From a phage, in assembly GCA_023732985.1 (NCBI GenBank), contig GCA_023732985.1_3946.1: a stretch of 64,000 nt of DNA. One strand, written 5' to 3'. The number at the start of each line of letters is the position of its first letter. Position 1 is the first letter of the stretch. The position numbers and the translations under genes were made by a program. The notes beneath the pieces were generated by a model. It did no database searches. It was given only the letters and a program-made list of their open reading frames with translations, and had not been told where the DNA came from. Positions 42,406 through 49,406 of this stretch are shown here, piece by piece.

Positions 42406-43821
42406 ATGAGCGAATTATTTAAACATGCGCACCTTCATGCAGGTCGAACTGAAAATGGTGCTGTAAACCATACTTCATCAATGTCTGCTCTTGTAGACTT
42501 TTACAAAGCTGCTGGTTCAAGCCGTAGCAACGTAGAAATCTTACCAGACCTGTTCTACAAAGCTTTGCGTGAGGATGTTGATGTTGCAGTTCGTATTTTA
42601 CTGCATATGCGAGATGTACGAGAAGGCATGGGTGAGCGTAAAGCCTTCAGAACTGTTTTGCTTCAAGCGATTGAAGACAAAGTTTTAGAGTCTACGCAGG
42701 TTCTTCGCATTATGGATAAGATTGCAGAACTTGGTCGTTTTGATGACTTCAAAATCTTCGTGGGTACTCGTTTCGAGACAGATGCCTTCAAGCATTTAGA
42801 AGCAGCATTACTAGACCCTGCAACAGCAGGTTTGGCAGCTAAGTGGTTACCACGAGTCAAACCACGTCATAAGCAGTTTGTAAAACGTTTCTGCAAGTTT
42901 GCCAACTTGAGTGAGAAAGAGTACCGCACACTATTGTCTGCACTATCTGATACAGTTGAGCAAAAAATCTCTGCTAATGAGTTTGGTAAGATTGACTACA
43001 GTAAGATTCCTTCACTTGCTGCTGCACGTTACCAAAAACTGTTTAACCGTAAAGATGGAGAGCGTTACAAAGCTTACATCGAGTCCTTATCAAAAGGTGA
43101 GACTAAGATTAACGCTGGTGCTGTTTACCCATACGATGTGATTAAATCTGTCAAGTGTGGTAATGCAGATGTTGCTAATGAGCAGTGGAAAGCACTACCA
43201 AACTGGATGGCAGAAGGTGAAAACATCTTGTGTATGTCTGATGTATCAAGTTCAATGTCTTGGGTGAATTTTGGCTCCATTACTGCTCTGGATATTGGCG
43301 TATCACTTGCCTTGTATGTAGCAGAACGCAATACAGGTTGCTTTAAGAATGAGTTGATGGTTTATTCGACAAACCCTCACTTCATCGAACTGAGTGGTGA
43401 TTTACGAAACCGTCATCGTCAGGTGATGCGACACGTTGAATATGGCTCAACTAACTTACAAGCAGCTTTTGACCGCATTCTTGAAACAGGTAAAAGAAAC
43501 AACTTGACTCATAAAGATATGCCAAGTAAGCTTATCATCTTCTCCGATATGGAGTTCAATCAGGTTGATGGAGCTAACGGTCGTACAAACTTTGAAGCAA
43601 TTCAGAGTAAGTACAAAAAAGCTGGATATGAGATGCCACAACTGGTATTCTGGTACTTAGCAAACCGTAATGGTACTTGCGAAGTATCTGTTAAGGATAA
43701 CGGTGTAGCAATGGTATCAGGGTTCTCTCCAGCCACTTTAAAAGCTCTGCTTGGTGGTGAGAAGTTTGACCCAATCAGTGTAATGCTCAAAGCAGTAATG
43801 ATTGACCGTTATATCTGGTAA
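42406..43821 (+). CDS. vWA-domain protein with MIDAS motif (possible Ro60-like RNA-binding protein)
   Basis: helical N-terminal ~280 aa then vWA region with DVSSSMS (DxSxS); Ro60-like assignment is inference. Confidence 0.6.
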   Translation: MSELFKHAHLHAGRTENGAVNHTSSMSALVDFYKAAGSSRSNVEILPDLFYKALREDVDVAVRILLHMRDVREGMGERKAFRTVLLQAIEDKVLESTQVLRIMDKIAELGRFDDFKIFVGTRFETDAFKHLEAALLDPATAGLAAKWLPRVKPRHKQFVKRFCKFANLSEKEYRTLLSALSDTVEQKISANEFGKIDYSKIPSLAAARYQKLFNRKDGERYKAYIESLSKGETKINAGAVYPYDVIKSVKCGNADVANEQWKALPNWMAEGENILCMSDVSSSMSWVNFGSITALDIGVSLALYVAERNTGCFKNELMVYSTNPHFIELSGDLRNRHRQVMRHVEYGSTNLQAAFDRILETGKRNNLTHKDMPSKLIIFSDMEFNQVDGANGRTNFEAIQSKYKKAGYEMPQLVFWYLANRNGTCEVSVKDNGVAMVSGFSPATLKALLGGEKFDPISVMLKAVMIDRYIW

Positions 43822-43839: not shown

Positions 43840-43868
43840 TTGACAATGTGTTTAATACCCTTTAATAT
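43840..43868 (+). promoter_or_regulatory. sigma70-like promoter upstream of the tRNA cluster
   Basis: TTGACA, 17 bp spacer, TAATAT. Confidence 0.5.
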
Positions 43869-43986: not shown

Positions 43987-44060
43987 CTCTGTTTAGCTCA
44001 GCTTGGTAGAGCGTTCCGTTTGGGGCGGTAAGGCCGGAGGTTCAAGTCCTCCAACAGAGA
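43987..44060 (+). tRNA. tRNA-Pro (anticodon TGG)
   Basis: hand-folded cloverleaf; acceptor CTCTGTT/AACAGAG; anticodon loop TTTGGGG; CCA encoded. Confidence 0.6.
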
Positions 44061-44070
44061 CCAAATTAAT

Positions 44071-44145
44071 GTTCCAGTGGACAAAATGGTAAAGTCACCA
44101 CTCTTTCAAAGTGGATATTTGAGGGTTCAAATCCCTTCTGGAACG
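44071..44145 (+). tRNA. tRNA-Glu (anticodon TTC)
   Basis: acceptor GTTCCAG/CTGGAAC; anticodon stem CCACT/AGTGG, loop CTTTCAA. Confidence 0.7.
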
Positions 44146-44155
44146 CCAGTTTTGA

Positions 44156-44226
44156 CAGAAGACCAATTACAGCAAACTTAATCTTATTCATCTGAAGGTA
44201 AATCGGACAAAGAAGAGATTTGGTCT
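44156..44226 (+). ncRNA. tRNA-spacer hairpin element, copy 1
   Basis: CAGAAGACCAATTACAGCAAACTT ... TTGGTCTGG; closing stem AGACCAA/TTGGTCT. Confidence 0.4.
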
Positions 44227-44239
44227 GGTCATTAAGAAT

Positions 44240-44313
44240 TGCGGGTATAGAGAAAGGGCGTCTCACATGTCTCATTAGCATGGTATCGGCAGGTTCGACT
44301 CCTGCACCCGCCT
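44240..44313 (+). tRNA. tRNA-Met (anticodon CAT)
   Basis: T-arm GCAGG-TTCGACT-CCTGC; anticodon stem CATGT/GCATG, loop CTCATTA. Confidence 0.6.
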
Positions 44314-44329
44314 CCAAATTTACAGAAGA

Positions 44330-44384
44330 CCGTTTACAGCAATACTTATTAAATTTTTAGCGGAAAAATTGAAAGATACGGTCT
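44330..44384 (+). ncRNA. tRNA-spacer hairpin element, copy 2
   Basis: closing stem AGACCGT/ACGGTCT with conserved TTACAGCAA. Confidence 0.4.
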
Positions 44385-44399
44385 GGTAATACTAAACAT

Positions 44400-44472
44400 G
44401 GTTAGGAAGCACATAAGGTATGTGCGGTCGCCTGTTAAGCGAATGGCACAGGGTTCGAATCCCTGACTAACC
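44400..44472 (+). tRNA. tRNA-Asn (anticodon GTT)
   Basis: T-arm CAGGG-TTCGAAT-CCCTG; anticodon loop CTGTTAA. Confidence 0.6.
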
Positions 44473-44485
44473 GCCAAATTAAATG

Positions 44486-44569
44486 TGTCGTTATCCCGTA
44501 GATGGTAGCGGTGGGGACTGTAAATCCCTTGTCATTGAGACTCGGTAGGTTCGACTCCTACACGGCACA
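44486..44569 (+). tRNA. tRNA-Tyr (anticodon GTA), long variable arm
   Basis: 84 nt; acceptor GTGTCGT/ACGGCAC; anticodon loop CTGTAAA. Confidence 0.6.
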
Positions 44570-44577
44570 CCAATAAA

Positions 44578-44651
44578 GGCTATGTAGTTTAACTGGAGAA
44601 AATACTCCCCTGTCACGGGAGATGATGTGAGTTCAAGTCTCATCGTAGCCG
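44578..44651 (+). tRNA. tRNA-Asp (anticodon GTC)
   Basis: acceptor GGCTATG/CGTAGCC; anticodon stem CTCCC/GGGAG, loop CTGTCAC. Confidence 0.7.
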
Positions 44652-44719
44652 CCAATTTTGAGAGGGCTATTTAGCTCCTCCCTTAAAGAGTTCTTACGAG
44701 TATTCTTTAAAGGAGCAGA

Positions 44720-44787
44720 AGACCAAATACAGCAAGAATGTATGAAATTTCAAGCCAATTTAATTTTGAAAATTTAAAACTTGGTCT
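44720..44787 (+). ncRNA. tRNA-spacer hairpin element, copy 3
   Basis: closing stem AGACCAA/TTGGTCT with conserved ATACAGCAAG. Confidence 0.4.
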
Positions 44788-44806
44788 GGCTCAACAAATT
44801 TACAGA

Positions 44807-44932
44807 AGACCGTTTACAGCAAAACTTAAACAATCTATTTCTCCGGTAAAGAAAAGGCGAAGGTTCGATTCCTTCACTCGGCAGATGTCGAGTTGGTGTA
44901 ATGGTAGCACTTAAGATGATAAACAACGGTCT
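44807..44932 (+). ncRNA. tRNA-spacer hairpin element, copy 4, carrying a permuted tRNA-like module (candidate Y RNA-like tRNA mimic)
   Basis: closing stem AGACCGTT/AACGGTCT; inside, T-arm GAAGG-TTCGATT-CCTTC, then ACTCGGC, AGAT loop, GTCGAGT (7 bp acceptor-like helix), then D-arm-like GTGTAATGGTAGCAC. Confidence 0.4.
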
Positions 44933-44940
44933 GGTAATTA

Positions 44941-45072
44941 TCTTTGTAGATAAGTTATTAAGCTTACCTGTGAGTATGCGACCACAAAGGGTGAAGGGTA
45001 AATTCTAGATTTAAACCTAAAAGGCACATCGCTACAGACCTTAAGCAAGTCTGGGTAGCTTATCTACAAAGA
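44941..45072 (+). ncRNA. structured element closed by a 14 bp perfect inverted repeat
   Basis: TCTTTGTAGATAAG ... CTTATCTACAAAGA enclosing about 105 nt. Confidence 0.35.
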
Positions 45073-45080
45073 TAATTTAA

Positions 45081-45154
45081 TGGAAGTGTAGCAGAATGGT
45101 GATGCGGCAGACTTTTAATCTGACAGGCGATGGGTTCGAATCCCTCCACTTCTA
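45081..45154 (+). tRNA. tRNA-Lys (anticodon TTT)
   Basis: acceptor GGAAGTG/CACTTCT; anticodon loop CTTTTAA; paralog of the tRNA at 46672. Confidence 0.6.
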
Positions 45155-45161
45155 CCAATAT

Positions 45162-45234
45162 GGTTCAGTCGCAGATAAGGTAATGCAAGGGTCTCATAAG
45201 CCCTATGAATGTGGGTTCGATTCCCATCTGAACC
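45162..45234 (+). tRNA. tRNA with CAT anticodon (Met, fMet or Ile2)
   Basis: acceptor GGTTCAG/CTGAACC; anticodon stem AGGGT/GCCCT, loop CTCATAA. Confidence 0.65.
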
Positions 45235-45240
45235 TCCAAT

Positions 45241-45312
45241 TGTGGGTTAGCATAAATGGTAATGCAAACGGCTGATAACCGTTAGAAGAGGGTTCGATAC
45301 CCTCACCTACAA
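45241..45312 (+). tRNA. tRNA-Ile (anticodon GAT)
   Basis: acceptor TGTGGGT/ACCTACA; anticodon stem AACGG/CCGTT, loop CTGATAA. Confidence 0.65.
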
Positions 45313-45330
45313 CCAATTTCAATAAAGTTG

Positions 45331-45359
45331 TTGACATTGAGATGTGACTACTTTATAGT
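45331..45359 (+). promoter_or_regulatory. sigma70-like promoter
   Basis: TTGACA, 17 bp spacer, TATAGT. Confidence 0.5.
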
Positions 45360-45368
45360 AACCTTAGT

Positions 45369-45427
45369 TTTCGTTGCGTAGCGTCTATTTTGCAAATTTA
45401 AAATAAATGCAAACGACAATGTTTTTC
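45369..45427 (+). ncRNA. candidate small RNA (promoter to T-tract)
   Basis: about 60 nt between the promoter and an imperfect hairpin ending TGTTTTT; no ORF. Confidence 0.3.
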
Positions 45428-45563
45428 TGGCAGTAGCTTGATAGGCTAAACACCAGTGAGGTCTTCCAATCCCTCATCAAAGAATTTGGCGTACTCGCCC
45501 ACGGTATGATTAATAAGGTGGGCATCTTTAAGGGCTTTCTAAGAGAGTCTTTAAAGATAATTA

Positions 45564-45642
45564 CGGGGCGTATCTCAGCGGTCTTCTAAACCGCCGTTAA
45601 CCGAGTAAGTGGAGTATGCGGGTTCGAGTCCTGCCGCCTCGA
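45564..45642 (+). tRNA. tRNA-like gene, non-canonical fold, isotype unresolved
   Basis: 7 bp acceptor CGGGGCG/CGCCTCG and T-arm GCGGG-TTCGAGT-CCTGC, but D and anticodon arms could not be placed by hand. Confidence 0.35.
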
Positions 45643-45659
45643 CCAATTTTGGAGAAATC

Positions 45660-46007
45660 ATGAAAACTTGTATTAGGTGCAAACTTAGCAAGGATGAAAA
45701 TGATTTCTACATGAAAGATGGTAGGAGAACTCATTCATACTGTAAAAAGTGTGTTAATGAGCAAACCATAGAAAGACAAAGAGCACTTAAACTCTTAGCT
45801 ATTGAGTACAAAGGTGGGGTTTGTCATGATTGTGGTAAGAAGTATCATCCAGCAGTGTATGACTTCCATCATTTGAATCCTTCAGATAAAGATTTTAACA
45901 TTGGTCATAGGAAAAGCCTTAAGTTCTCTCAAGAACTAAAAGATGAACTTGACAAATGTGTTTTGCTATGTTCAAATTGCCATAGGGTAAGACATGCAAA
46001 ATATTAG
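45660..46007 (+). CDS. HNH homing endonuclease
   Basis: ATG at 45660 (track start overlaps the tRNA-like gene); CxxC pairs plus DFHHLNP...LLCSNCHRVRH. Confidence 0.65.
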   Translation: MKTCIRCKLSKDENDFYMKDGRRTHSYCKKCVNEQTIERQRALKLLAIEYKGGVCHDCGKKYHPAVYDFHHLNPSDKDFNIGHRKSLKFSQELKDELDKCVLLCSNCHRVRHAKY

Positions 46008-46144
46008 TTAGCAGATTACTTAGACGGCCTTAGCGGGTCTTCCTGTAGGGAGGTGGTCTGTATCTCATGTTTTCCAGAACATGTAAATAATCTGAGAAGG
46101 AGCTTGACAGTGTTGAGATAATACGGTAAGCTTCGAATTATAGT

Positions 46145-46224
46145 ATGGGACGATGTTAAGACTCTAAGGCATGAGCAACGGCTTCCAACACCGTTTCAAA
46201 GGGGTTCAACTCCTCCGTCCCATG
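46145..46224 (+). tRNA. tRNA-like gene, non-canonical fold (possible CCA anticodon, Trp)
   Basis: 7 bp acceptor ATGGGAC/GTCCCAT and T-loop TTCAACT; D region about 6 nt too long; candidate anticodon loop TTCCAAC. Confidence 0.35.
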
Positions 46225-46240
46225 CCAAAGTCTTATTAGG

Positions 46241-46328
46241 GGTAGGTAGCGGCTAATGGTAGCCAAACTGTCTTGAAAACAGTTGCCACTGTAGAGATAC
46301 GGTGAGGGTTCGACTCCTTTACTTACCG
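46241..46328 (+). tRNA. tRNA-Ser (anticodon TGA), long variable arm
   Basis: 88 nt; acceptor GGTAGGT/ACTTACC; anticodon stem ACTGT/ACAGT, loop CTTGAAA. Confidence 0.6.
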
Positions 46329-46586
46329 CCTAATAAGATTTTAAAGCCAAGCTTCATTCGGATGTTGCTTTGGTATCCCTCGTGTATTGTCGTACACACT
46401 GATAAAACACCTAGTAGGTGTCACGGAGAAGAGATAATATCAAGCTCTCCAAAGGTTCTAGTCACCGGATTAAACAAGACTATGCAAAGACCTTTTTAGG
46501 TCTTTTTAGAGGGCTTCTAAGGTTATTACGGCTTGTTGTGGAACCTTGTTGCTTAGGTTCTTAGAAGTTCTCTAAAAAGATTTAAT

Positions 46587-46661
46587 GGGAGATTGACGGT
46601 AATTGGTAAACCTATCTCGCTTAGAACGAGATGTTTGAGGGTTCGAATCCCTTGTCTCCTA
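46587..46661 (+). tRNA. tRNA with TAG anticodon (Leu-type) but short variable arm
   Basis: anticodon stem ATCTCG/CGAGAT (6 bp), loop CTTAGAA; T-arm GAGGG-TTCGAAT-CCCTT; variable region 5 nt. Confidence 0.5.
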
Positions 46662-46671
46662 CCAAATTAAT

Positions 46672-46745
46672 GCAGGTGTAGCAAAATGGTTATGCGGCTG
46701 ACTCTTAATCAGTAAGACGATGGGTTCAATTCCCTCCACCTGTAC
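46672..46745 (+). tRNA. tRNA-Lys (anticodon CTT)
   Basis: paralog of the 45081 tRNA with a compensatory anticodon-stem change; loop CTCTTAA. Confidence 0.55.
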
Positions 46746-46752
46746 CAAAAAT

Positions 46753-46825
46753 GGGGTCATAGTTTATATGGTTAAAATTCGAGTTTTGCAAACTTGGGAA
46801 CTGAGTTCAATTCTCAGTGACTCCA
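46753..46825 (+). tRNA. tRNA-Ala (anticodon TGC)
   Basis: G3:U70 pair in acceptor GGGGTCA/TGACTCC; anticodon loop TTTGCAA. Confidence 0.6.
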
Positions 46826-46834
46826 CCAATTAGT

Positions 46835-46906
46835 GCATCCATAGTTTAAACGGGAAAATTACAGTCTTCCAAACTGAGGTTGAGGGTTCGATTCCCTCTG
46901 GATGCT
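46835..46906 (+). tRNA. tRNA-Gly (anticodon TCC)
   Basis: acceptor GCATCCA/TGGATGC; anticodon loop CTTCCAA. Confidence 0.65.
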
Positions 46907-46916
46907 CCAAATTAAT

Positions 46917-46989
46917 GCTCCTATCGTATAATTGGCTATTACGGTTGCCTTGTAAGCAACTTATCAGGGTTCGAATCCTTGTGGGAGCA
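46917..46989 (+). tRNA. tRNA-Thr (anticodon TGT)
   Basis: anticodon stem GTTGC/GCAAC, loop CTTGTAA; T-arm CAGGG-TTCGAAT-CCTTG. Confidence 0.65.
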
Positions 46990-47087
46990 CCAATTCAGAG
47001 GTCAAGTGAAAGACCGCTGGTGTCAACTGAAGACCGTAACAAATTCCACGGAGTTGAGTTAGCGGCACAACTTCAGACCTCTTTCAC

Positions 47088-47159
47088 ACTCGCTTAGTTT
47101 ATATGGTAAAACATCACCCTTACAAGATGAAGAAAAAGGTTCAAGTCCTTTAGTGAGTA
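47088..47159 (+). tRNA. tRNA-Val (anticodon TAC)
   Basis: D-stem GTTT/AAAC; anticodon loop CTTACAA; T-arm AAAGG-TTCAAGT-CCTTT. Confidence 0.55.
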
Positions 47160-47163
47160 CCAT

Positions 47164-47239
47164 GTTCCAGTATCCCAATTGGCAGAGGATGCAAGCTCAA
47201 ACCTTGTATTAGTGACGGTTCGAATCCGTCTTGGAACAC
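47164..47239 (+). tRNA. tRNA with CAA anticodon (Leu-type) but short variable arm
   Basis: anticodon stem TGCAAG/CTTGTA, loop CTCAAAC; T-arm GACGG-TTCGAAT-CCGTC. Confidence 0.5.
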
Positions 47240-47355
47240 CAATTTTAGGAGAACACTATGAGCAATAAGTCAATTGCAAAAAAGTTTAGAGCGTCATACC
47301 TAAACAGACGTAAAAACAAAGTTTGTGAAAAACTGTATGGTGTTCTCGTAGGTAA

Positions 47356-47428
47356 GCAGGATTAGTTCAAATGGATAGAGCAACAGTCTACGAAGCTGTT
47401 AATAGGGGTTCGAATCCCTTATCCTGCA
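47356..47428 (+). tRNA. tRNA-Arg (anticodon ACG)
   Basis: perfect acceptor GCAGGAT/ATCCTGC; anticodon loop CTACGAA. Confidence 0.65.
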
Positions 47429-47450
47429 CCAATTTAAAGAGGCTATTTAG

Positions 47451-48008
47451 ATGAGATATTTGAAGTATGCTTCATGGATTTTCTTAGCTTTGTTAGAGCC
47501 ATTTGCAGCAATCTTAGCAGTTATCTTAGCACCTTTTGTAGTTCCATTCTACAGTGAGAAGAAAGGACACTTACCTTTCGGGTTCAGATGGATGGAGACA
47601 TATGACAACCCAATTGATGGTGATGAAGGTCACGTTAAAAGATGGGCTAATATTAGATGGATTGGTAAACTAGGTGTCTACATGCAAAGAGTCGGATGGC
47701 TCTGGAGAAACAAAGCTTATAACTTCTCTTACCATGTATTAGGAAGAGATGTAAGAGATGTTACTAAGTGGAAAGGTAATATCAACGTAAGTTCTAACCC
47801 TGAAGATAATCAGACTGGTTATCTCCTAATGTGGAACAGTAATGCTTGGGGATTATTCGCTTTTATCCCATCAATTAAAGTCTTCGGTAAACAGTTTTAC
47901 TGGAGAATTTATGTTGGATGGAAACTTAAAAGTGTTGTCCCAGAAGAAAGAGCATTCTCAAGGGAAAGAGTTATGTTGGCATTCTTTATTCATCCACTGA
48001 GAAAGTAA
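47451..48008 (+). CDS. hypothetical membrane protein inside the tRNA cluster
   Basis: AAGAGG RBS; N-terminal hydrophobic segment. Confidence 0.45.
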   Translation: MRYLKYASWIFLALLEPFAAILAVILAPFVVPFYSEKKGHLPFGFRWMETYDNPIDGDEGHVKRWANIRWIGKLGVYMQRVGWLWRNKAYNFSYHVLGRDVRDVTKWKGNINVSSNPEDNQTGYLLMWNSNAWGLFAFIPSIKVFGKQFYWRIYVGWKLKSVVPEERAFSRERVMLAFFIHPLRK

Positions 48009-48016
48009 AGATTTAA

Positions 48017-48090
48017 AGGGGATTAGTTTACAAGGTTAAAACCTAGGTCTTTGAAATCGAAGAAGTTGGTTCAATTCCAACATCCCCCGC
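48017..48090 (+). tRNA. tRNA-Gln (anticodon TTG)
   Basis: T-arm GTTGG-TTCAATT-CCAAC; anticodon loop CTTTGAA; stem has one mismatch. Confidence 0.5.
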
Positions 48091-48094
48091 CAAT

Positions 48095-48169
48095 GCTCCA
48101 TTACTCCAATTGGCAGAGAGGCCAGACTTAAAATCTGTGTTATGTATCGGTTCGAATCCGATATGGAGT
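48095..48169 (+). tRNA. tRNA with TAA anticodon (Leu-type) but short variable arm
   Basis: acceptor GCTCCAT/ATGGAGT; T-arm ATCGG-TTCGAAT-CCGAT; anticodon loop CTTAAAA. Confidence 0.45.
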
Positions 48170-48177
48170 ACCAAATT

Positions 48178-48252
48178 TAGCGGTATAGCATAACTGGCAA
48201 TGCAGCAGTCTCTGAAGCTGTCCTATTAAGGTTCAAATCCTTATGCCGCTGC
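48178..48252 (+). tRNA. tRNA-Gln (anticodon CTG)
   Basis: acceptor AGCGGTA/TGCCGCT; anticodon loop CTCTGAA. Confidence 0.55.
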
Positions 48253-48285
48253 CACTTCTAAGGATTCTTACGAGAGTCCTTAAAT

Positions 48286-48358
48286 GTGGCCTTATCATAA
48301 ATGGTAATGACCCATGCTGTGAACATGGTCTATACGGGTTCAAATCCCGTAGGTCACC
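48286..48358 (+). tRNA. tRNA-His (anticodon GTG)
   Basis: anticodon stem CCATG/CATGG, loop CTGTGAA; acceptor GTGGCCT/AGGTCAC. Confidence 0.65.
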
Positions 48359-48367
48359 CCAATTTAT

Positions 48368-48440
48368 AGTCCAAGTAGCTTATATGGTTAAAGCGCGTGT
48401 CTGAAAAACATGAGAAGAGGGTTCAAATCCCACTGGACTA
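48368..48440 (+). tRNA. tRNA-Phe (anticodon GAA)
   Basis: anticodon loop CTGAAAA; T-arm GAGGG-TTCAAAT-CCCAC. Confidence 0.6.
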
Positions 48441-48459
48441 CCAATTTCAAAGGTGCTTA

Positions 48460-49194
48460 ATGAAAGAGATGACAGAACAAGGTAAGGAGATTTTCAATCT
48501 CTTAAAAACCGGTAAAGGGTTTTCTAACCCCCTTATTACTGGTGCAGCAGTTCTCGGTGGAACCGTAGCTGCCTCTACATCACTTGTAAGCTCTATTAGC
48601 TCTGTATCAGACCCTACAGTAAAGGATAAGCTTGTTGCTGCTGGACTTACAACAGTTCTGCTTAACAGCTTTACCACGAGTCTGACAAGCACTACATCAA
48701 CTACCAAAACACTAACAGATTACGGTCAAAAGTCCATTGATGAGTTTTCATCACGTATGCAGGTAGCAAAAGGTTACTCTAATGTTATGGGTGCAGCAGG
48801 TGAACAAGTTGGCTGTACACCATTTAGTGGTATTATGGGTGTTGCTACAGAGTATGGTCAAAAAACTATTGATACGATTAACAGTGTACTAGATAGTGTT
48901 AATGGTGTGTTAAGTGACTTACAAGATGCTATTGACAAAGGTCTTGATACTATTTCTGATTTAGCTGAGCAAGCTGTTAGTAAGATTAATGAAGGTATTT
49001 CAAAAATTACAGCTTATGCAGATGAAGTTGTGCAGATGATTGAAGAAGAAGCTGCTCTTATTGCAGAGTACCTTAAAACGAATATCAATGGGTTCTTAGC
49101 AGGTATCTTACCAGACTGGTTTGATGATGCTTGTAAAACTGGTGTAATTGACACTATTGCAACACCAGAAATGAAGAACGCATTACAGAAATAA
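48460..49194 (+). CDS. hypothetical protein (Ser/Thr-rich)
   Basis: ATG at 48460, in frame with the track ORF whose upstream part overlaps tRNA-Phe. Confidence 0.55.
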   Translation: MKEMTEQGKEIFNLLKTGKGFSNPLITGAAVLGGTVAASTSLVSSISSVSDPTVKDKLVAAGLTTVLLNSFTTSLTSTTSTTKTLTDYGQKSIDEFSSRMQVAKGYSNVMGAAGEQVGCTPFSGIMGVATEYGQKTIDTINSVLDSVNGVLSDLQDAIDKGLDTISDLAEQAVSKINEGISKITAYADEVVQMIEEEAALIAEYLKTNINGFLAGILPDWFDDACKTGVIDTIATPEMKNALQK

Positions 49195-49196
49195 AT

Positions 49197-49286
49197 GGAA
49201 GATTAACCCTAAAAGGTAAGGGAGCAGTTTGCTAAACTGCCAGTAGCTGAGAAATCGGTGTACCAGTTCAAGTCTGGTATCTTCCT
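49197..49286 (+). tRNA. tRNA-Ser (anticodon GCT), long variable arm
   Basis: 90 nt; perfect acceptor GGAAGAT/ATCTTCC; anticodon stem GCAGT/ACTGC, loop TTGCTAA. Confidence 0.6.
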
Positions 49287-49295
49287 CCAATTTGA

Positions 49296-49368
49296 ATCCG
49301 TGACAGAAACGGCTATGTGCCTGTCTGCAAAACAGGTTTATAAGGGTTCGAGTCCCTTCGGATTCTCC
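49296..49368 (+). tRNA. tRNA-Cys (anticodon GCA)
   Basis: perfect acceptor GAATCCG/CGGATTC; anticodon stem CCTGT/ACAGG, loop CTGCAAA. Confidence 0.7.
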
Positions 49369-49406
49369 AAGTTATTTTACTCTCTCTCAATTAAAATAAT
49401 AATAAT

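Follow-up and report, generated by a model that had tools for sequence, protein, structure and literature searches.

Three short-armed (type I) tRNA-Leu genes in a Felix O1-like phage, and the occurrence of this form in other phages and in bacteria

Introduction

Can a leucine transfer RNA (tRNA) that has no long variable arm still serve as an ordinary leucine tRNA? The question is raised by a stretch of phage DNA of 64,000 nucleotides (nt; NCBI GenBank assembly GCA_023732985.1, contig GCA_023732985.1_3946.1), hereafter the window, in which three genes of a tRNA cluster combine leucine anticodons with a short variable region. According to a 2023 review of tRNA identity (PMC9976931) the long arm is present on leucine and serine tRNAs in all organisms except animal mitochondria, and the phage genes are an exception to the rule stated there. 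A previous reading of the window made from its letters alone (the sequence-only reading) had remarked on this departure from the normal form, rightly so since the review excepts only animal mitochondria, and had proposed that the three tRNAs may be charged unusually or act as decoding modifiers.

The 2.3 kb around the three genes matched more than 200 Felix O1-like phages (Felixounavirus, Ounavirinae), including Felix O1 itself, at 94–97% identity. The hosts of these phages are Escherichia, Salmonella, Shigella and Citrobacter, and by its sequence the window derives from a Felix O1-like phage of Escherichia coli or Salmonella.

Here we argue, with a probability of roughly 0.78, that the three genes encode functional type I tRNA-Leu which is charged by the leucyl-tRNA synthetase (LeuRS) of the host and serves the UUA, UUG and CUA codons enriched in the phage. 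The argument builds on (i) the structure of the genes and the identity elements they retain, (ii) their conservation, covariation and wide distribution, and (iii) the mismatch in codon usage between phage and host; from these observations we infer expression, charging by LeuRS and a reason for the loss of the arm.

Gene calls and predicted folds

The three genes were called by ARAGORN and scored with the general tRNA model of Rfam (gathering score 29), which detected each of them at E ~1e-7:

46587..46664, + strand, tRNA-Leu(UAG), type I: ARAGORN anticodon tag, 78 nt with CCA (75 nt without), Rfam tRNA 44.5 bits
47164..47241, + strand, tRNA-Leu(CAA), type I: ARAGORN anticodon caa, 78 nt with CCA (75 nt without), Rfam tRNA 44.0 bits
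48095..48173, + strand, tRNA-Leu(UAA), type I: ARAGORN anticodon taa, 79 nt with CCA (76 nt without), Rfam tRNA 47.5 bits

In a cloverleaf parse the variable regions comprised 5 nt (TGTTT) in tRNA-Leu(UAG), 6 nt (ATTAGT) in tRNA-Leu(CAA) and 7 nt (GTTATGT) in tRNA-Leu(UAA), none of them helix-forming, and a short variable loop was drawn by ARAGORN in each case. ARAGORN, Rfam and the parse are therefore in agreement with the hand folding of the sequence-only reading, whose gene ends were right to within 1 nt (lengths without CCA of 75, 75 and 76 nt). The three genes also appear, as Leu TAG, CAA and TAA, in the published tRNAscan-SE table of the Felix O1 genome paper, with Cove scores of 52.2, 46.2 and 57.9 and without a pseudogene flag, so that both predictors give the anticodons read by hand, the only dissent being a RefSeq pseudo label for the TAG gene of phage Si3 (see below). 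The variable region of the Leu tRNAs is not remarked upon in that paper.

The anticodon loops are 7 nt long with U33 and carry sense Leu anticodons (CTTAGAA for UAG, CTCAAAC for CAA, CTTAAAA for UAA), and all three genes encode the CCA end and the discriminator A73. None of the traits of suppressor or recoding tRNAs that were looked for, namely a stop-codon anticodon, an 8-nt anticodon loop or a mismatch between identity and anticodon, was found in them. The least regular of the three is tRNA-Leu(UAG), with a G1-U72 pair, 3 nt separating the acceptor and D stems, A at position 37, and a D stem GGT/ACC that either starts with a C10-U25 mismatch or is shifted by one base. Its anticodon stem of 6 base pairs (bp; ATCTCG/CGAGAT), already noticed in the sequence-only reading, was drawn in the same way by ARAGORN. 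The other two genes are paralogues with 74% identity: tRNA-Leu(CAA) has A9, C13 and the D arm TCC-CAATTGGCAGA-GGA, and tRNA-Leu(UAA) has G1-U72, A9, C13, the D arm CTC-CAATTGGCAGA-GAG and a C-U mismatch at 27-43.

Comparison with host tRNA-Leu

The phage genes were laid out position by position against leuW (UAG), leuX (CAA) and leuZ (UAA) of E. coli K-12, all of type II. The main difference is the variable region, which measures 13, 13 and 15 nt in leuW, leuX and leuZ as against 5–7 nt in the phage. The three phage tRNAs and the host agree in U8, in U48, which closes the variable region and is followed immediately by the T stem, and in a canonical T arm, A73 and CCA. In the CAA and UAA tRNAs the agreement extends to the 3-bp D stem and the 11-nt loop N13-A14-A15-U16-Y17-G18-G19-Y20-A20a-R-A21, and the UAG tRNA carries the host-type D-loop motif TAATTGGTAAA on an irregular stem. 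The T loop TTCGAAT of all three would be able, at the level of sequence, to form the contacts G18:U55, G19:C56 and U54:A58. Among smaller differences from the host, the CAA and UAA tRNAs have A9 and C13 (host G9 and A/G13), and C32 stands in place of U32; the G1-U72 wobble of two phage tRNAs is found in leuZ too.

The sequence-only reading had regarded the long arm as part of leucine identity, a view that does not hold for LeuRS of the E. coli type. In E. coli, A73 is crucial for leucine identity and neither the anticodon nor the long arm is (PMC9976931); the determinants are A73, A14, A15:U48, G18G19 and A20a, and variants without the arm are still active (PMC9976931). Those determinants of E. 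coli LeuRS that can be read from sequence (A73, U8/A14, A15:U48, G18G19 and A20a) are all present in the three phage genes, and the alanine determinant G3:U70 is absent from them.

Structural class and covariation

For the analysis of base pairing an alignment of 101 sequences was used, comprising the three of the window, four from phages of Enterococcus and Erwinia and, from viral contigs, 94 with pairwise identities below 85%. The cloverleaf pairs were formed in 97.5% of the cells, 19 of 20 pairs had changed on both sides and 804 cells were doubly changed, values reached by none of 500 shuffles; slid registers paired in 36–47%. Covariation thus supports all four stems of the short-armed tRNA-Leu. 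The invariant columns were A14, A15, G18, U33, A35, U48, G53-T54-T55-C56, A58 and A73, of which some D-loop positions had been forced by the search pattern in at least one tRNA per contig and U48 and A73 had been left free. Both A73 and U48 were found in 154/154 viral short copies, 122/122 bacterial short copies and 120/120 long viral copies, a conservation in hundreds of copies that is hard to explain if LeuRS is not the partner.

Among the 154 viral short copies the variable loop was 5 nt long in 123, 6 nt in 23, 7 nt in six and 8 nt in two. Short and long copies also differ in the core: A9 occurred in 51% of the viral and 84% of the bacterial short copies, as opposed to G9 in 98% of the long ones, and C13 in 55% of the viral and 93% of the bacterial short copies but in 0/120 parsed long copies, which have G/A13. 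This signature points to a re-packed core rather than to random deletion. It is carried by the CAA and UAA tRNAs of the window; the TAG tRNA belongs to another sub-lineage and is closest (76%) to viral copies with G13-type D arms. Some short copies elsewhere keep D arms similar to type II, as compared with the CCCAATTGGCAGAGG-like D arm of the CAA/UAA pair, and several independent losses of the arm are likely from these sequences.

A scan blind to the anticodon, asking whether a Leu-type D arm is always accompanied by a Leu anticodon, was dominated by ordinary tRNAs that fit the pattern out of register with a 4-bp D stem (GCTC-AATTGGTA-GAGC). Filtered to 3-bp D stems it was weakly informative, with Leu anticodons on 40 of the 47 short tRNAs of Leu-type D-arm geometry (39 known contigs at one tRNA each plus one Leu(AAG)); the seven cases outside the search pattern were four Glu UUC, one Gln, one His and the Leu AAG. 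The four UUC tRNAs, from IMG/VR viral contigs, combine the Leu-type D-arm geometry (3-bp stem, G-AATTGGTAGA loop) and A73 with a Glu anticodon, and may represent a form of tRNA-Glu that is normal in certain host lineages.

Conservation among related phages

The 2.3-kb surrounding is 94–97% identical; within it, tRNA-Leu(CAA) reached 99% identity or more in 160 out of 292 phage records with a match, and tRNA-Leu(UAA) in 216 out of 264. Three short Leu tRNAs (caa, aag and taa; 77–78 nt) are present in the more distant Erwinia phage Hena2 (Kolesnikvirus), the CAA orthologue of which differs from that of the window through changes to the acceptor, anticodon and T stems that compensate one another fully. 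Being more conserved than their flanks and showing compensatory substitutions, the CAA and UAA genes appear to be under selection within the phage family.

The UAG gene exists as two alleles among Felix O1-like phages. The allele of phage warpig differs from that of the window at eight positions, all in the anticodon stem (window 46614-46632), with three pairs swapped on both sides and one pair turned into U-U; its anticodon stem resembles that of the homologue in T5-like phages, where UAG homologues are found at about 76% identity. The comparison suggests either that phage families have exchanged sequence or that the anticodon arm is under pressure to diversify.

A hybrid gene was observed in Salmonella phage Si3 (5124-5202 in the coordinates of the Si3 stretch examined), which is Leu(CAA) on its 5' side and Leu(UAA) on its 3' side, the junction lying within the common CCAATTGGCAGAG. 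The locus is without about 930 bp of the window that hold a tRNA-Arg, the DUF7338 open reading frame (ORF) and a tRNA-Gln, and the hybrid tRNA forms 6/7 pairs of the acceptor stem and 2/3 pairs of the D stem. To judge by these sequences, it is a product of natural recombination between paralogous type I genes.

Distribution in phages and bacteria

BLAST searches with the three genes recovered short Leu tRNAs in T5-like phages, Acinetobacter phage P1, and Erwinia and other phages. One of 76 nt with the same D arm TATCCCAATTGGCAGAGGA is encoded by Enterococcus phage EFGrKN (Herelleviridae), and two type I Leu tRNAs of 77 nt, one of them adjoining a tRNA-Ala, by the Tequintavirus HildyBeyeler, which was isolated on E. 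coli K-12. The sole annotated tRNA-Leu of T5 is of type II (85 nt, anticodon UAG), which means that both designs serve phages of the same host. Deletion of the arm in place was considered for the T5 relatives and rejected, since the UAG genes of T5 and HildyBeyeler are unrelated in sequence and gene replacement accounts for the difference.

Collections were scanned up to the first 120 contigs in scan order, and the proportions obtained are therefore those of samples and not of censuses. A pattern that required the D loop to be of the Leu type, the anticodon to be one for Leu and the spacer to the T loop to be short matched at least 120 contigs in IMG/VR, in which ARAGORN called 181 Leu tRNAs of up to 80 nt and 33 above that length; in the same contigs the Tyr tRNAs were all long, as were the Ser tRNAs except for one call (72 nt). 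With any spacer allowed, short forms occurred on 23 of the first 120 IMG/VR contigs and only long forms on 97 (about one in five with short forms), where the long class is inflated by prophage contigs with flanking host tRNA-Leu genes. The lengths of the viral variable loops were bimodal, 5–8 nt or 11–19 nt with almost none between, and viral contigs tended to be all-short or all-long for their Leu tRNAs.

In a collection with one genome per bacterial species, the short pattern likewise matched at least 120 contigs. The matches were mostly single chromosomal tRNA-Leu genes of 74–77 nt (UAA, CAA or UAG) from Actinomycetota, among them Nocardia, Rhodococcus, Mycobacterium, Gordonia, Corynebacterium, Arthrobacter, Bifidobacterium and Rothia, with mostly UAA or CAA anticodons; a few were multi-tRNA arrays. 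The actinobacterial occurrence is far broader than the lone Streptomyces case in the literature searched.

Codon demand

The G+C content of the window is 38.8%. Leucine codon usage was compared between 39 long ORFs of the window and 44 ORFs of an E. coli K-12 segment, with the following percentages of Leu codons in phage and host, respectively: TTA, 24.8 and 11.8; TTG, 14.1 and 12.6; CTT, 27.7 and 9.6; CTA, 10.4 and 2.8; CTG, 16.2 and 52.5. The codons CUA, UUG and UUA, singled out for such a comparison in the sequence-only reading, were all more frequent in the phage ORFs than in the E. coli sample, and TTA and CTA were slightly more frequent in the block of packaging and head genes than in the upstream block. 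Demand in the phage exceeds usage in the host most strongly for precisely the codons that the three anticodons cover. The same argument from codon demand was made for TTA by the authors of the Felix O1 genome paper.

Charging by LeuRS and proposed mode of action

The closest described counterpart is a type I tRNALeu(CAA) of Streptomyces coelicolor, which is charged by the LeuRS of that organism (Fan et al. 2019; PMC6614811). The minimum in that system is five loop nucleotides including position 48, and U8-A14 matters (PMC6614811). Like the phage tRNAs, the Streptomyces tRNA, with its 5-nt loop, exists beside type II tRNA-Leu in a cytoplasm that has a single LeuRS, and actinobacterial relatives of the Streptomyces form have the same D arm (CCCAATTGGCAGAGG) and are 72–78% identical to the CAA and UAA tRNAs of the window. 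Unlike the phage tRNAs, it has C48 (PMC6614811) and is served by a LeuRS indifferent to A73. Both A15:U48 and A73 are retained in the phage tRNAs, which are phage-borne, comprise three isoacceptors with loops of 6 and 7 nt in two of them, and must work with a LeuRS of the E. coli type.

Three further systems are informative. Animal mitochondrial tRNA-Leu(UUR/CUN) are likewise short in the variable loop, with a leucine identity that lies on A73 and A14 (PMC9976931), but they are floppy molecules with degenerate D and T loops and have a dedicated mitochondrial LeuRS, whereas the phage tRNAs have canonical elbows (G18G19 and TTCGAAT) and meet a bacterial LeuRS that normally sees type II substrates. 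Arm-less constructs of E. coli tRNALeu are leucylated by E. coli LeuRS if A73 and the tertiary contacts of D loop with T loop are intact (Larkin et al. 2002; Asahara et al. 1998; Tocchini-Valentini et al. 2000, via PMC9976931), and it is exactly this set of features that the phage tRNAs hold; in contrast to the laboratory constructs, the phage genes are natural and conserved and have core changes (A9, C13) absent from host tRNAs. The tRNA-Leu(UAG) of phage T5, a virulent coliphage, is similarly a Leu isoacceptor encoded within a large tRNA cluster and differs by its long arm (85 nt), an anticodon-replaced version of it being an amber suppressor according to the T5 annotation; other members of Tequintavirus carry type I instead of the type II gene of T5.

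From these data the following course of events can be proposed. During infection the three tRNAs would be transcribed with the rest of the phage cluster and processed, the CCA end being pre-encoded, and host LeuRS would charge them with leucine. LeuRS would do so by reading A73 together with the form of core and elbow (U8-A14, A15:U48 and the placement of G18G19/A20a), and neither the anticodon nor a long arm. The UAA and CAA anticodons would then read UUA and UUG, and the UAG anticodon CUA and CUG and possibly more of the CUN codons. No synthetase-like ORF was found among the five ORFs of the cluster scanned against Pfam, and the phage would rely on the single LeuRS of its host, alongside the type II tRNA-Leu of the latter.

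The loss of the arm would be possible because bacterial LeuRS does not need it, and tRNA-Ser would stay long because seryl-tRNA synthetase (SerRS) measures the arm; the tRNA-Tyr genes here, of the bacterial kind, keep the arm too. On this view the same saving would be closed to Ser and Tyr tRNAs. In the window they serve as internal controls, as they have kept the long variable arm that the sequence-only reading ascribed to them (ARAGORN):

46241..46330, + strand, tRNA-Ser(UGA), 90 nt
49197..49289, + strand, tRNA-Ser(GCU), 93 nt
44485..44572, + strand, tRNA-Tyr(GUA), 88 nt

Several points weigh against this interpretation. In the only direct test of E. coli LeuRS with a natural bacterial type I tRNALeu, the CAA species of S. 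coelicolor, no charging was obtained in vitro. Fan et al., for whom nearly all bacterial tRNALeu belong to type II, accordingly describe this enzyme as one that 'only charges type II', and they report that its leucine-specific domain favours a large variable loop (PMC6614811). The literature searched contains no charging assay or tRNA sequencing of these phage tRNAs. The UAG tRNA is irregular in its extra nucleotide before the D stem, its weak D stem and its A37, compared with G37 in host leuW, and its orthologue in phage Si3 is labelled 'tRNA-OTHER', pseudo, in the RefSeq annotation, as are four other Si3 tRNAs. Lastly, the argument from codon supply is generic and leaves the missing arm unexplained. 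With regard to the Streptomyces result, all phage copies have U48, which pairs with A15 and is an E. coli determinant, and this could make the phage versions acceptable to E. coli LeuRS, unlike Streptomyces C48.

Alternative explanations

An adaptive origin of the short loop is the alternative that survives best. It accepts normal leucine charging and decoding and holds that the tRNAs, by losing the arm, escape host defence or toxin enzymes that pick class II tRNAs by this arm, or, in a variant, that they survive while host tRNA-Leu is destroyed. Immunity that targets tRNA is widespread, and sequence changes are a known means by which phage tRNAs evade it (phage-tRNA evasion paper); moreover, a 2026 preprint reports that the abortive-infection toxin AbiEii, like MenT3, prefers long-armed class II tRNAs, and human Schlafen 11, as far as titles in reference lists tell, cleaves type II tRNAs. 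The AbiEii preference is inferred from product sizes, that is, from bands alone, and no enzyme is known that targets tRNA-Leu of E. coli or Salmonella via the arm. The bimodal loop lengths, the all-short or all-long contigs and the co-variation of A9 and C13 look like a settled alternative design and not like decay, but folding constraints by themselves would predict the bimodality and the core co-variation equally well. The two TAG alleles differ only in the anticodon stem, as would be expected under diversifying pressure on that arm. Against a defence of this kind it can further be argued that it would still hit the Ser and Tyr tRNAs of the phages, which keep their arms, and that Actinomycetota keep type I tRNA-Leu as single chromosomal genes for which no phage-defence story is needed. 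On balance we regard the adaptive explanation as improbable. The same degree of doubt attaches to its fuller version, in which type I is a widespread design favoured by phages, chargeable by host LeuRS and unseen by arm-recognising toxins and nucleases or by phage-induced destruction of host tRNA; if it were true, E. coli LeuRS would charge natural type I tRNAs efficiently given A15:U48 and A73, contrary to the statement that it charges type II only.

The idea put forward in the sequence-only reading, that another synthetase charges the tRNAs, that they are charged poorly, or that they act as decoys or decoding modifiers, is considerably less probable still. It draws on the inactivity of E. 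coli LeuRS towards the Streptomyces type I tRNALeu and on the E. coli crystal complex, where the long arm of the tRNA touches the C-terminal domain of LeuRS (PMC6614811); the 'tRNA-OTHER' label given to the TAG orthologue in one pipeline could be cited as well. Yet every known E. coli leucine determinant is kept, with A73 and U48 invariant, G3:U70 is missing, the anticodon loops have 7 nt and the anticodons are sense anticodons, and even without regard to the anticodon 40/47 short tRNAs of Leu-type D-arm geometry turned out to be leucine tRNAs by anticodon. The evidence favours ordinary leucylation and sense decoding over an unusual charging or a decoding-modifier role.

That the genes are decaying pseudogenes which lost the arm by deletion and no longer function is effectively excluded, even though phage clusters contain degenerate copies (at least two tRNA-like remnants uncalled by ARAGORN in the window, and the Si3 hybrid CAA/UAA gene with its damaged D stem), because the stems are intact save for a single mismatch in the D stem of TAG and another in the anticodon stem of UAA, CCA is encoded, the genes are near-invariant in more than 200 phage genomes with diverging flanks, the genes themselves show compensatory substitutions in distant relatives, and the same architecture occurs in unrelated phage families and on bacterial chromosomes.

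The tRNA cluster and its other elements

The functional type I tRNA-Leu genes proposed here are part of the following cluster:

43987..49369, + strand, tRNA cluster with 25 tRNA genes by ARAGORN, all on one strand

The tRNA genes alternate with small ORFs and tRNA-like elements, and the gene order is collinear with that of Felix O1 and relatives. Near-consensus matches to a sigma-70-like promoter were located upstream on the same strand at 43840, 43931 and 45331, such promoter-like matches not being enriched relative to shuffles. The small ORFs inside the cluster (45660-46007, 47451-48008 and 48460-49194, + strand) are all conserved in relatives and gave a weak match to HNH endonucleases (17.6 bits vs the Pfam cutoff of 21.4) and matches to a DUF7338 and a DUF7217 protein. 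GenBank record GU169904 ('Staphylococcus phage SA1') includes this Felix O1-like tRNA region at 97% identity, which suggests a mixed or chimeric assembly.

Two tRNA-like sequences on the + strand were not called by ARAGORN. The one at 45564-45645 scored 31.7 bits with the Rfam tRNA model and has a 7-bp acceptor stem, a 3' ACCA, the anticodon loop CTTCTAA (UCU, Arg), no D arm and an extra region of 23 nt; the one at 46143-46225 has a 10-bp acceptor-like stem, a T arm and a fold z-score of -3.2. Both could be tRNAs, degenerate or of an unconventional kind, that serve AGA and a further codon.

Four paralogous structured elements are also located between tRNA genes on the + strand (44156-44232, 44323-44395, 44716-44790 and 44803-44938). 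Each starts with CAGAAGACCNNNTACAGCAA and ends with NNNGGTCTGG; the NNN positions covary and AGACCNNN pairs with NNNGGTCT (four exact copies vs 0.01 expected). The fourth element encloses a circularly permuted tRNA-like module composed of a T arm, an acceptor-like hairpin with a 4-nt loop and a D-arm-like hairpin. The motif occurred only in Felix O1-sized contigs (36 contigs of IMG/VR), with three copies in phage Si3 and none in the Erwinia relative, and no Rfam family matched the four elements. They may resemble bacterial Y-RNAs of the YrlA type, which have a tRNA-like domain.

Directly upstream of the cluster and the repeated elements lies an ORF of 471 amino acids (42406-43821, + strand) that matches DUF2828, DUF7788 and PHROG 850 'RNA-binding protein' and has a helical-repeat N-terminal half. 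This DUF2828 protein could be a Ro/TROVE-like partner of the repeated RNAs. A sequence search against solved structures returned no relative of it, and a single-sequence AlphaFold model (pLDDT, the predicted local distance difference test score, of 44) was too poor to use.

Implications

The genes have been annotated as Leu tRNAs for years and their form is of the known type I kind. What is new is that these and many other phage and actinobacterial tRNA-Leu break the rule that this tRNA is 'always class II', and do so in hosts whose LeuRS is thought to depend on type II; no account of short-armed tRNA-Leu in phages was found in the full-text literature searched, including the Felix O1 genome and phage-tRNA evasion papers. 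The finding bears on annotation too, as some pipelines flag type I tRNA-Leu as 'tRNA-OTHER' or pseudo. If the phage tRNAs are simply leucylated, this would be a useful correction of a generalisation and not a new mechanism. A classical, easily handled family of coliphages and Salmonella phages with three type I tRNA-Leu would offer an experimental handle on (i) how a LeuRS adapted to type II treats natural type I substrates, (ii) which changes in the core, such as A9 and C13, compensate for the loss of the arm, and (iii) whether this loss is related to tRNA-targeting immunity.

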